NCBI GenBank assembly: GCA_964016885.1
Contig: OZ024740.1
Coordinates: 104,656,001 to 104,720,000, forward strand
Origin: Eledone cirrhosa
Taxonomy: Eukaryota
DNA: 64,000 nt
Reading direction: 5' to 3'
Of the stretch, positions 15,594 through 28,399 are shown piece after piece. The notes below the pieces were generated by a model. That model ran no database searches, was not told the origin of the DNA, and was given only the letters and a program-made list of their open reading frames with translations. How positions within the stretch are numbered: the stretch's first letter is position 1; every line of letters starts with the position of its first letter. Both the position numbers and the translations under genes were made by a program.

Positions 15594-18500
15594 GTTATCT
15601 CTTTCTTAATTTCGAGTATATTTTTTTGACCGGCCACCTTCCTGGTGGCAAGGTTGTAAAAGAAAAGAAATTGTCATCCCGTGAATCGCAAGAACGTTTT
15701 GCAAATTTTGAAGGTGCCAGCTATCGCAGCCATTTGTAGACTATGGATTAGGGAGCTGCGCTTTTTGTCCGCAAATCCAAGTTCAGTCATACTTTGGTCC
15801 AAGCGGGTTGGTATATAACCCGTAGCTCCATTAATGATGGGTATGAAGCTAAAGGTGTATCTTGGATACTGGATTTGTAAACTCCTCATCAATGGTCTGT
15901 AGATGTCCTCCTTCTCCTGTATTTTTCTGACAACGTTTCCACAAGTGGGCAGCTGATCTTCACAACAGAACACGTTTTCAATGTGTGGTCCCAAACAACA
16001 ATATCAGGCCGGTTGTGCTTTAATTTGGTGGCAGTTTTTATTTTCAGGTTCCACCAGTATTCCTTAGTGCCATCTGTCTCAATATATTCTTCCTCGTTTG
16101 TTGTTAATTTTGTTTTCCGAAGTGCGTTCCAGATGGTTCTAGCTATCCCATCGTGTCCCATTCTTTCGCAGCTGGCAACAATGTGGCTTACATCCTCGAT
16201 CTTTGTTTTACATAGCCTACATTTATTGTCAGCTGCTGGCCTTCTTCTTTTGTGCAGCAGATATTTGGTAGGGAGTTCTTGTTCCTGTATTGCATAGAGA
16301 TATCCCTCAAGGTGTGATGTCATAAACTTGTCGGAACTCCATGCCAGGCTTTTTGAGTGGTTTATCCCCTCTATGGTCTGTGTTTTACATCTCAAGTATC
16401 CATGCACAACTTTTTCTGTAAATTGGTCAATTTTTTTATCTTGTTTGAACATTGAATAGGATCTTCCGATTTCTCTGGGTGAGAGATTTATATCAGGCTT
16501 TATTCCATATCTCTCCTCCAGATCAGTCGCTATTCTAATGATATTTTTTTTTTTCATGCTCATAAACCTGGGCAAGATAGTTGCCAACCTTTTTCCTCTG
16601 TTGAAGGTGTTGCTTCAGTGCTACTATCCGGGTCTCATATGTTGTTAATATTGATTTTAGACCCCGGCCACCTTCCTTGCGTGAGAAGTATAGCCTATCC
16701 ACATCACCATTGATGTTAAAGTTCCCAGTAACACTGAGAAGTTTGCGAGTTCTAACATCCATCTCACTTAGTTCTTGCAATGACCAGTTCAGCAGGCCAA
16801 ATGTTGGCGTTAGAATTGGCACAGCATAAGTATTGTGGGCAATGTATTTGTTGTACGCTGACAGTTCTGATGACCATATTTTCTTTACTCTTCTGAGGTA
16901 TTCAGTTGTGGTTCTCTCCTTATTTATGGGTCCATCATATCTGACATTCTCATCCTGTCCAAGATATCTGTAGTTGTCACCTGACTGTAGAGGTTGTATT
17001 GTCAGGCCATTCATCTCTAGATTTCTAGAGGAGGGCACAGCTCTTCCACGTTTTACTGCCAAATATGCACACTTGGACTCACCAAATTTCATTTTGATGT
17101 CGGTTGAAAATTGTGTAATGAGGTCCAATTGTTTCTTGATGTCATTAATATTTGGCCCATACAACTTCAGGTCATCAACAAAGAAAAGATGGGAGATACT
17201 TCTGGACCCACTTCTTTGTCCACCTTGTTTCCTGAGTAGGTAAGATAGTGGATTCTGGTAATGTATCTTATCAGTCTTAACTTGCTCCTTCTCACCTCTA
17301 AGGATCAAATTGGTGTACCAGTTCTTGGTCAGGCGTTCAACAGCAGCTACCAATGGTTGTGGGACTTTGGCTAACTGTAAAGCCTTAATAATCCACCCAT
17401 GAGGTACACTATCAAATGCTTTTTGATAGTCCAGCCACACCACAGTCATGTTTCTGCGATTCTTTGTTGTTTTTTCCTGAATCATTTTGTTAGTTAGTAG
17501 GTGATCTATGCAACCCCACACCTCCCTCTTTCCACCAGCTTGCTCATGTGTTATGATGTTGTTGGTAGCACAGTGATCCTGTAAGAACAGGTTAAGGCAC
17601 CCACTATATAATTTATACATTATGTTTTGGCAGGCTATTGGGCGGTAATTTTTAGCAAGGGTGGTTTGGCTATTTTGGGGAATGAGGGGAGTAGTGGCAG
17701 TTGATAACCATCTGGGCAGTTCTTGTGTGCTTTTAATGGTTTCTGTAAACAGCCGTATGAGATCTGGCTGATAGAAAGTGAAATTCTTCAACCAATATCC
17801 TGTAATGAGGTCTGGACCTGGCGATTTCCTATTCAACATTTTCTGTAGAGCTGTTTCCAGTATTGACCCATCTATGTCATATTGTTTTGTCTGGACATGT
17901 TGGCAGTAGTCCTGTTCCAGTTCTTTTAGCCAATTAGTTTGTCTGTTGAATCTGTCATCCGTTTCCCATACAGATCTCCAGTAGCTCTCAACCTGTTCTT
18001 TTGAAGGGGTGTCATTTACAGGGATTGAGCTTTTACCGCCGAAGCTGCGATAAACTGATTTAGGATCTCTGGCAAACAATCTATTTAGCACTTGTCGTTT
18101 ATGCGCTGTTGACTTATATTTTAGTCTTTCTGTTGTAGCTGTGAGTTGTTGTTTCAACTGGTGTAATTTGGAGTGCAAAGTTTTAAATTTTGTATCTCCA
18201 AATCGTCTCTCTAACTTTTTTTTTAGGTCTTCCTGGTGTCGTGTGAAGTTGCTCTCTATGTTGCATTTCATAACGACTGCGATGTGTGAGATACTTCGTC
18301 TCAGGGACAACATTTTGCTTTTTAAATTTCGCATCCACGCTGGTTCAGGCTTTCTGTTTGTATCTTGATTGCGTGGTTTTAGATGTGTGTTATATGATAG
18401 CAATGTGACAGCTGAAACACATAACAAAATATTAAGCGTTTCAAATGTCGTTTCTACACCTTTAGATCGTATAGCCTTCAGATAATTGCCAGCTATTTCG

Positions 18501-19005
18501 TTCACCGCTTCCAATTCCAATTTAGTGGGTTCTTTACTGATTCTGGTGTTGTATGGTCTGTCACTCACATTAAGGCTGTGTATCTCTTGAAACATATCGT
18601 CCCATATCACTTGTAAGGTGTCCACAAGTTTTTGGTGTTCTGTTTGTTCAGTAGAGTCATGAATTTCAGCCTCGTTGTTGATGTGGTGACAATTACTACT
18701 AGAGTTAGCTGACCTTTCTCGCTGTTCTTCAGTGGAAGTGGGATGGATTTCAGCAAAATTGTTGGTGAGCTGTTCACTGTTAGATTTAGCTGGCCATTAT
18801 CTTTGTCTGTCAGTGGAGGTTGGGTGGTTGTCTACAAGGGCTGTATTTGTAGTATCACTCAATTCCGTTAGATGTATCAATTTACATCTAATGATACGTT
18901 TTGCCTGTTCATTTAAATGCTTTGGAGAAAAGTCTAATTCTGGGTGTTTGGAGTTCCATAAAGTTTTTAGCCTTTGCATAAAATCAAACTTTTGGGGTTC
19001 AGATT
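15594..19005 (-). mobile_element. R4/Dong-clade RLE retrotransposon (subfamily a), near full ORF with frameshifts
   Basis: RT motifs NYRPIAC, WLDYQKAFDSVPH, HLFFVDDLKL, YRYLG; CCHC knuckle CRLC...H...C; RLE KHNRPDIVVWD. The N-terminal FMQRLKTLW...LNEQAKRI motif resembles R4. Flanked by (CATA)n on both sides. Confidence 0.9.
16535..18625 (-). pseudogene. reverse transcriptase ORF segment of the R4/Dong element (continues out of frame in 15889-16587 and 15674-15994)
   Basis: 696-aa ORF with RT motifs; the QGD motif region is deleted (KIHYQ joined to NPLS). Confidence 0.85.
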
Positions 19006-19040
19006 GTATGTATGTATGTATGTATGTATGTATGTATGTA

Positions 19041-26917: not shown

Positions 26918-27060
26918 CTCCTCGTGCAATGGCCATACTCGATAACGAGGGGGCAGCCATCATGTATGTATGTATGTATGTATGTATGTATGTATGTATG
27001 TATGTATGTATGTATGTATGTATGTATCTACGTACGTACGTATGTACGTATGTATGTATG
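22740..27060 (+). mobile_element. near full-length RTE LINE with APE, RT and three C-terminal C2H2 fingers (copy 2)
   Basis: Has a 5'UTR; APE (GCWNVRTL, ALSETR, GDFNA, TDH); RT (NYRGISLL, FVDLTKAFD, GVKQG, LLYADD, FVYLG); 3' hairpin CTCG-ATAA-CGAG; (TATG)n tail. Confidence 0.95.
23155..26685 (+). pseudogene. RTE APE-RT-ZnF polyprotein, two frameshifts (~25290, ~25670)
   Basis: ORFs 23155..25446, 25289..25801 and 25672..26685 join into one RTE protein. Confidence 0.9.
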
Positions 27061-28218
27061 TTCTTCTGGTTTTATAATTTCACAAGGTTTTACCAATAGA
27101 GTGAGAGTCGGTTTCTAACATAGACACAAGACTCTCATTGGAATTTACACAACATCAGCTAGGTAGATATGTATGTATGCATGTATGTGTAGATATGTAT
27201 GTTATTGTATGTGTGGATGTGTATGTTTTGAGTTGTATGTGTGCAAGTGTATATGCTTTGCATCTGTACATGTGTATATGCAGTTATTAGATGCAAAATT
27301 TTTGGAATGTTTTACAAATTTTTACTGTTCCATTAATGGATTGTACTTGTAATTTCCTAACTAGTTCTCCTTGTCTCATATCATAATATCTGGTCTGTTA
27401 TGCTTGCATTTTATTGGGGTTTTTACTGGAACATTCCACCAGTACTCTTTCATATTATGTACATGGATGTCTTCCACATTGCTGTAGCTTTTAATGTGTT
27501 TATTATCGGGGCTGTCTTTTTTACGAACTGCATTGTACAGTGTTTTGGCCACTACATCATGCCTCATAGGTAGATAGTACCGTGATGACATCTTTGGACA
27601 GATGCTGATGACATGGGTGATATCCTCGATGTTAGTTCTGCAGAGTCTGCACTTGTTATCACATCTAGGTGTTTTGCCTGCATCGCTATCTCTTTTGTGA
27701 ATCAGGTATTTCGTGTTAATCTCCTGTTCTTGGATTGCAAAAGCGTATCCTTCAAAGTGGGAGCCTATATAGCGGTTGTTGGTCCAAGATAGACTACTTT
27801 CCTTATCTATATTACTCTCACTCTGGAGCTTCCTGGCAACATATCCATGCATGATTTTTTGCTGATAAGTATGCAGTTTTTCATCCATGGATTCACTGCG
27901 ATACTGCTGAGCGACTTCCCTGAGTGCGAGTTTTTGATTATCACAGAGGGAATATCTCTCGAGGAGTTCCTTCCCAACTCTCATGATCTTATCTGTTTCA
28001 TGCAGATAGACTTGCTCGAGAAACGGGCTCCTACGCTTCGAGGTTCGTAGATGTTGTCGGAGAGATATGATGCGACATTCAAATGTTGTCTGGACTGATG
28101 TTAGGCCTCTGCCTCCCTGCTTACGTTTCAAGTAATGGCGGTCTATGTCACTGTTGATGTGGAAGTTTCCGATGTTGTTTAGTATTTTTCGAGTTCCAAC
28201 ATCAACAGCTCGGATTTC
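27061..28218 (-). mobile_element. R4/Dong subfamily b, 5'-truncated, in (CATA)n
   Basis: YLKRKQGGRGL, AIQEQEI, CRLC...H...C, RHD, KHNRPDI; internal deletion at ~27376. The 3' end joins (CATA)n directly. Confidence 0.9.
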
Positions 28219-28399
28219 GTATGTATGTATGTATGTATGTATGTATGTATGTATGTATGTATGTATGTATGTATGTATGTTTCTCTGTCTGTCTGTCTGT
28301 ATGTATGTATGTATGTATGTACATACGTACGTATGAGTGTGCGTATAAAATATATGTGTGTGCACGTGCGAAGCTGATTCAGCAGGCAGCTTGACAGCC

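Follow-up and report, generated by a model that had tools for sequence, protein, structure and literature searches.

R4/Dong-type retrotransposons residing in (CATA)n arrays of the Eledone cirrhosa genome

An insertion chain joined by tetranucleotide arrays

The window analysed here is a stretch of 64,000 nucleotides from Eledone cirrhosa (assembly GCA_964016885.1, contig OZ024740.1, positions 104,656,001 to 104,720,000 of the forward strand), numbered from its first letter as position 1. It holds four copies of long interspersed nuclear elements (LINEs) of the R4/Dong type, which lie in the tetranucleotide repeat (CATA)n, read as (TATG)n or (ATGT)n on the plus strand. A genome-wide target preference of these elements for (CATA)n is real and strong. 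An initial annotation of this DNA sorted the copies into two subfamilies; the two types stand, but they are separate families, only 48.7% identical over 876 aa, namely family A (15594-19005 and 20967-21327) and family B (1-283 and 27061-28218).

Between 12.8 and 28.3 kb lies a single insertion chain with ATGT arrays as joints, where RTE-type elements occupy the plus strand and R4-type elements the minus strand. A TATG array (12754-12769) lies on the 5' side of a 5'-truncated zinc-finger RTE (12788..15528, plus strand, a 96.8% match to the RTE at 23083-26962), and an (ATGT)17 array (15528..15594) joins the 3' end of this RTE to the 3' end of the longest family A copy in the window (15594..19005, minus strand). 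The latter is 3.4 kb long, frameshifted and deprived of ~740 nt of its 5' end, and contains a reverse transcriptase (RT; Pfam RVT_1, 2.7e-16), a CCHC knuckle and the RHD and HNRPD motifs of a restriction-like endonuclease. Its 5' junction faces head-to-head, across an (ATGT)9 array (19005..19043), the first of three short non-coding RTE-related elements on the plus strand (19044-19629, about 19660-20270 and 20542-20896), each of which terminates in CAGCCACC and then ATGT; an inverted fragment (20285-20493) also lies in this region (19044..20896). Following an (ATGT)18 array (20896..20967) there is a 361-nt 3' fragment of family A (20967..21327, minus strand), which is set head-to-head by a (TATG) array of ~42 units (21327..21492) with a full-length, frameshifted zinc-finger RTE (21493..26962, plus strand) that has a leader of ~1.6 kb, an apurinic/apyrimidinic (AP) endonuclease, an RT and three C2H2 fingers. 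Since this element starts at 21493, right after (TATG)21, RTE 5' ends lie in arrays too. Its 3' end is joined by an (ATGT)25 array (26962..27061) to the 3' end of a family B copy (27061..28218, minus strand) of 1.16 kb, 5'-truncated and internally deleted in comparison with other copies, whose 5' junction carries a (GTAT) array of ~25 units (28219..28321). The fourth copy, a 5'-truncated family B element on the minus strand (1..283), has its other end outside the window: the 3' end lies ~135 nt before it, within a short (TATG)3 and with no RTE end adjoining.

The positions given to the four copies by the initial annotation were correct, as were the (TATG)n at all of their 5' junctions, the joining of the three 3' ends within the window to (TATG)n without poly(A), and the tail-to-tail arrangement of those three copies with an RTE or its short relative. 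The arrays at the 5' junctions span 285-296, 19007-19042, 21327-21382 and 28220-28279, and those at the three 3' ends 15531-15594, 20899-20966 and 26965-27060. That picture of pairing was nevertheless partial: the short element at 19044 and the RTE at 21493 start in arrays, which places two R4 copies head-to-head with RTE-type 5' ends as well. As a separate observation, 22 nt of the 5' end of the fragment at 20967..21327 recur inside the next array (21383-21408), and truncation junctions in L011, L050 and L309 also showed a repeat of the 5'-most 15-25 nt of the element itself, as template jumping predicts.

Flanking repeats across the genome

The genome examined amounts to 3.0 Gb in 1,796 contigs, from which R4 copies were mostly taken as the best-scoring 30-150 of each search. 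A 3' end was assigned to CATA when a perfect CATA-phase run of at least 8 nt followed a distinct 3' end, a run that by chance would start within 9 nt of a random position in 0.6% of cases. Such runs were found at 105/124 3' ends of family A and 87/95 of family B (192/219 together); among the exceptions listed, most are CATA/TA arrays with interruptions. Runs of at least 12 nt of TATG, CA or TAA were absent from all 219 ends, and AT runs of that length occurred at 0 ends of family A and 2 of family B. The insertion orientation is non-random, with none of the 219 3' ends in the opposite one. In a count of exact matches, the 22-mer at the end of family B occurs 5,274 times genome-wide and is continued by ACATACAT in 3,951 of them.

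The 5' side tells whether CATA could be nothing else than the tail of the element itself, a reading that the initial annotation tied to varied 5' flanks. CATA runs adjoin 80/92 5' junctions of family A and 59/82 of family B (139/174 together), distributed over 56 and 60 truncation bins, respectively, and their presence across so many truncation points indicates a target and not a mere element tail. In this line, among 20 long family A regions the 5' start is visible in 19, each preceded by CATA repeats, and both ends are visible in 18. Altogether, the sequence- and orientation-specific residence in (CATA)n advanced for the window was borne out in the genome at large.

The two sides of the insertions differ. 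On the 3' side the register is nearly constant (element end, then A-ACATAC), with AACATACA in 60/124 ends of family A and 76/95 of family B. The median perfect run is longer at the 5' than at the 3' side, both in family A (37.5 vs 15 nt, n=80, p=2e-6) and in family B (26 vs 16 nt, n=59, p=0.003). Target-site duplications reached 15/174 in a loose test, against 10.5 in shuffled pairs, and those of at least 16 nt reached 5/163 in a stricter one, against 1.2 in shuffled pairs (0/300 shuffles). Among 18 copies with short 3' arrays none showed duplication of the unique flank, and therefore a duplication of ~20 nt would be at most occasional.

The preference does not follow the abundance of repeats. 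A blind sample of 600 kb contained 686 (AT)n, 196 (AC)n, 106 (CATA)n and 30 (TAA)n arrays, so that (AT)n is 6.5 times commoner than (CATA)n; since (AT)n and (AC)n outnumber (CATA)n and yet rarely flank the elements, the commoner repeats are passed over. An internal control was provided by a third Dong-like family drawn from the same blind sample, whose 3' ends lie in (TAA)n in 28/29 cases and in CATA in 0, with TAA at 6/14 visible 5' junctions. Conversely, 0/219 3' ends of families A and B lie in TAA runs, which leaves both families outside Dong in the narrow sense of (TAA)n insertion.

The zinc-finger RTE that shares these arrays is assigned to its clade by domain content: AP endonuclease (Exo_endo_phos, 2.2e-10), RT (RVT_1, 6.5e-17) and C2H2 fingers. 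As in other RTE-clade LINEs, there is an AP endonuclease with an RT in one ORF, a 3' repeat and a set of short relatives with a common 3' end. RTE sites have been described as not sequence-specific (PMC2887409), whereas here both junctions are mostly in ATGT/AT arrays and polarity is fixed. The leader of the window copy (21493-23083, 1.6 kb) holds several internal simple repeats and a segment resembling a short interspersed nuclear element (SINE) at about 22240-22430, and is broken by a second SINE-like piece near 22440-22485. In L191, L194, L197, L205 and L220, other element ends reading CAGCCA(T/C)C adjoin the same arrays and are oriented like the RTE, so that at least two families of RTE type make use of them. 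Elsewhere in the window, open frames of 930 and 609 aa (37463-40255 and 51717-53546) belong to a further LINE family whose interior holds a PHD-like cysteine cluster, and long degenerate (ACC)n/(ACCAAC)n arrays surround a (CA)n tract at 45230-48708.

Protein domains, known systems and lineage

Full-length copies found elsewhere in the genome measure ~4.2 kb in family A and ~4.1 kb in family B. Natural copies of family A keep open frames of 1,086 aa, ending inside the endonuclease, and 1,084 aa, one of family B keeps ~970 aa from its truncation point to the C-terminus, and no complete unbroken open reading frame (ORF) appeared among the long copies scanned. Both families carry CRLC..HxxxxC, RHD, HNRPD and E(I/V)SCP motifs, which we take to be the restriction-like endonuclease region; a scan of three R4 frames with Pfam-type profiles gave no Exo_endo_phos match that would indicate an AP endonuclease, and the best matches among solved structures in the PDB, by structure and by sequence, are R2 proteins. 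For the N-terminus, a confident predicted model of three helices (residues 22-74) has Zeste, Sap1, TRF1, GT-1 and RAD Myb as top matches (Z 5.1-6.6, middling for helical bundles). The domain is accordingly predicted to be Myb-like, in agreement with the Myb/SANT-like N-terminus without zinc fingers that PMC7998251 reports for R4/Dong elements. A ribozyme of the hepatitis delta virus (HDV) type at the 5' end matched neither Rfam nor a crude descriptor, two methods that may miss divergent ribozymes. As an aside on family A, one and the same base just past the E-I-S-C-P motif of the endonuclease (15935-15950 in the window; L341, L342) is missing from about 10/95 copies, among them those whose open frames are longest, which suggests a defective sub-lineage still being copied.

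Dong elements have (TAA)n as their target, and the accounts of Bombyx Dong, DongAg, DongBg and ostracod Dong1/2 describe elements whose only ORF encodes a Myb-like N-terminal part, an RT, a CCHC knuckle and a restriction-like endonuclease, with microsatellite on either side (PMC7998251, PMC3812793). Families A and B have the same single ORF, the same domains with a predicted Myb-like N-terminus and microsatellite on both sides. They differ from Dong in residing in (CATA)n, in forming a separate subclade (Shimodaira-Hasegawa-like approximate likelihood ratio, SH-aLRT, of 100 in a quick tree) and in that no 5' HDV-like ribozyme, such as was shown for Dong and R4 (PMC3774820), was detected. The ACAY microsatellites targeted by the R1-clade elements WaldoAg1, WaldoAg2 and WaldoFs1 (PMC3812793) include ACAT, the same repeat as that of families A and B; Waldo, however, comprises insect elements of the R1 clade with an AP endonuclease, unlike the restriction-like endonuclease and R2-like architecture found here, and since the enzyme is unrelated a common target would be convergent. 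Togen, a NeSL-related element in (TG)n, and some HERO families are also microsatellite-specific LINEs with restriction-like endonuclease (PMC4640811), but from other clades and with other repeats. Regarding octopuses, five recently active Dong-R4 families with 1,129 insertions are reported in O. vulgaris (PMC13282606) and, for O. bimaculoides, a Dong consensus with full ORF (PMC9115989), and these annotated families may include A and B; the main text of the former source does not contain the word 'target' nor does the latter contain 'target site'. No CATA- or CTTA-specific R4/Dong element was found in the literature searched, and one may be listed in sources outside that search, namely Fell et al. 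2025, who screened 4,464 animal genomes (via PMC13586686), Kojima and Fujiwara 2003/2004, Repbase and supplements. As far as the searched literature goes, Dong microsatellite targeting is known and CATA is new as a target variant within the R4/Dong clade.

The closest named homologue is an ORF of Argonauta hians (65% identity), and the CATA families show 31-35% identity to a Bombyx Dong-like ORF. Among 80 metagenome loci, 42 were inspected for flanks and 26 entered a quick tree of 61 rows, in which families A and B, the Argonauta ORF and 25 others form a single 28-row clade (SH-aLRT 100). Its sister, in a tree whose rows hold no verified R4 or Rex6 reference, is a group that comprises every one of the 19 TAA-flanked rows together with the Bombyx ORF. 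The sister of family B in this tree is a full-length element on a metagenome contig (L375) with (CTTA)n at both ends, and two further rows of the clade (L374 and L419) are on contigs that end before any repeat. The target is known for just three rows of the clade, so that a 'four-base lineage' is only a lead. The residence in CATA likely reflects a shift in targeting away from TAA, the repeat that relatives use. A basic RRxNRxY motif before the first helix, a putative specificity arm, occurs in 23/35 long proteins of the near group and 0/25 of the distant one.

Two side observations concern the same set of proteins. The KxxKY endonuclease motif of TAA-type elements is often KxxIY in the subclade with A and B (columns 1280-1290 of alignment A1). 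The metagenome contig L445 (88-126 and 4071-4196), which has a long branch and served only as outgroup of the tree, carries a full-length element with restriction-like endonuclease and a clear Myb motif, inserted in 28S ribosomal RNA with a 14-nt duplication, 25 nt past a motif that we presume to be the R2 site.

Targeting, alternative explanations and meaning

The most probable reason why families A and B lie in (CATA)n in a single orientation is that the repeat is bound, and nicked at a fixed register, by their own protein, whereas the unrelated RTE likely enters the same arrays independently and with opposite polarity. The flanks, polarity, register, asymmetry between 5' and 3' sides and domains are observed, and the steps of binding and nicking are drawn by analogy with R2, in which upstream binding is followed by a nick, priming at the RNA 3' end and frequent 5' truncation. 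On this model, the N-terminal domain would read several CATA units upstream of the insertion point, the (TATG)n strand would be nicked and would prime reverse transcription there, perhaps with the primer paired to some repeat bases that close the 3' end of the RNA, and synthesis would often stop short of the 5' end before being joined to the upstream array. A binding footprint on the upstream side would explain why 5' arrays are long, whereas 3' arrays may be down to one or two units, and repeated insertion into one array would yield chains such as that at 12.8-28.3 kb of the window.

Several points weigh against this model or blur it. The long 5' arrays could stem from slippage during or after integration instead of a binding footprint, and the Myb match of the N-terminal domain is only middling for a helical bundle, as noted above. 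Of the exact family B ends, 25% are not followed by a perfect ACATACAT continuation, and 12/92 5' junctions in family A and 23/82 in family B have no adjoining CATA run; several of these resemble later breaks, internal deletions or failures of the chaining rule. Finally, the sampled copies lean young, because they are mostly best-scoring matches.

The initial annotation had proposed that the target is produced by another LINE, that is, that the RTE deposits (ATGT)n tails on which the R4/Dong families depend, an explanation that is now improbable and largely refuted already. It is true that ATGT continues from 21 of the 48 3' ends at RTE-led loci, that RTEs have been reported as microsatellite generators in Lepidoptera (PMC2887409), and that R4 copies counted outside the window and the RTE-led loci are tail-to-tail with an RTE-type end more often than random CATA clusters (56/204 vs 7/60, Fisher p=0.015). 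This enrichment is real but modest: a share of the copies does sit in RTE tails, as annotated, but ~73% are not tail-to-tail with an RTE. Moreover, head-to-head neighbours are as common as tail-to-tail ones (46 vs 39 among 164 R4 copies with both sides visible), in a landscape where RTE-type neighbours are antisense to R4 in 85/87 cases and R4-R4 neighbours co-oriented in 67/70. Nor does the RTE have an obligatory ATGT tail, as the remaining 3' ends at its loci are AT (12), GT (1) or other (14), the pure (AT)n ones mostly where the 5' side is also AT, and R4 is present in only 4/48 of these tails. The 5' junctions of the RTE are themselves ATGT (18), AT (10) or GT (2) in 30/39 cases, with 9 other; in a further 29 long copies the 5' flank is one of these arrays in 16, under a strict rule that undercounts, since several of the 13 remaining rows have ATGT at the junction and an overshot boundary. 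The ages of R4 and RTE families overlap (median identity to the window copy, 96-98%), the layout of R4-RTE pairs is symmetric, and the repeat used by a relative from another animal is (CTTA)n. A source of the R4 target in the RTE is therefore not supported; as its 5' junctions are mostly ATGT/AT arrays, the RTE itself lands in alternating purine-pyrimidine arrays, with a looser taste than R4 and the opposite polarity. Both LINE types appear to use a common landing pad, and the RTE may lengthen the arrays.

A different explanation dispenses with protein specificity: an RNA ending in (CATA)n would anneal at existing nicks or breaks in complementary arrays. Pairing of RNA 3' repeats with the target has been proposed for RTE and other LINEs (PMC6007223), and the near-constant 3' register would fit, AACAT being kept even where the flank exits the repeat at once; base pairing may well be how the RTE picks its sites here. 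For families A and B it is unlikely, as long 5' arrays beside 3' arrays of one or two units would not be expected from pairing confined to the 3' end, the endonuclease motifs are conserved across the clade, and TAA and CATA families split by lineage. The genome is also rich in alternating purine-pyrimidine repeats, which leaves room for passive accumulation, whether through wide insertion with survival only in repeat-rich neutral DNA or through later expansion of arrays beside the elements. Such a process is exceedingly improbable in the face of a strict polarity with no opposite case, a fixed register, the avoidance of the commoner (AT)n and (CA)n and the distinct behaviour of the TAA family.

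Recognition of the repeat by the R4/Dong protein thus stands as the preferred explanation, through a mechanism that is not new. How site-specific retrotransposons change target is an open question of relevance to R2-type tools for gene insertion, and here one genome has related enzymes for CATA and TAA, with the CTTA of a relative one base away. Since these related enzymes go to different repeats, the part that sets specificity could be mapped by exchanging N-terminal domains among them. The initial annotation also saw in these elements a possible enzyme for site-specific integration, a use that is doubtful, since the repeat aimed at is scattered over the genome (106 arrays in the 600 kb sampled) and a microsatellite so dispersed makes a poor safe harbour.

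A broader proposal can be put forward tentatively, as somewhat less than an even prospect: an undescribed, broad R4 sublineage would have moved from the three-base TAA to four-base targets of the form C-W-T-A, with CATA for octopods and CTTA for another animal, which a lineage-specific, arginine-rich RRxNRxY arm just before the Myb-like domain would read, and in this genome would share arrays with an RTE of opposite polarity that seeks microsatellites independently, each lengthening the landing pads of the other. If true, the natural TAA, CATA and CTTA variants would constitute a domain-swap series for target change in retrotransposons with restriction-like endonuclease. In a genome of this kind, (CATA)n markers should be used with caution, as they are often retrotransposon junctions. 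For the biology of the organism, residence in these arrays accounts for thousands of LINE copies strung into long chains of insertions, in DNA where they do no harm, within a large genome of the cephalopod type.

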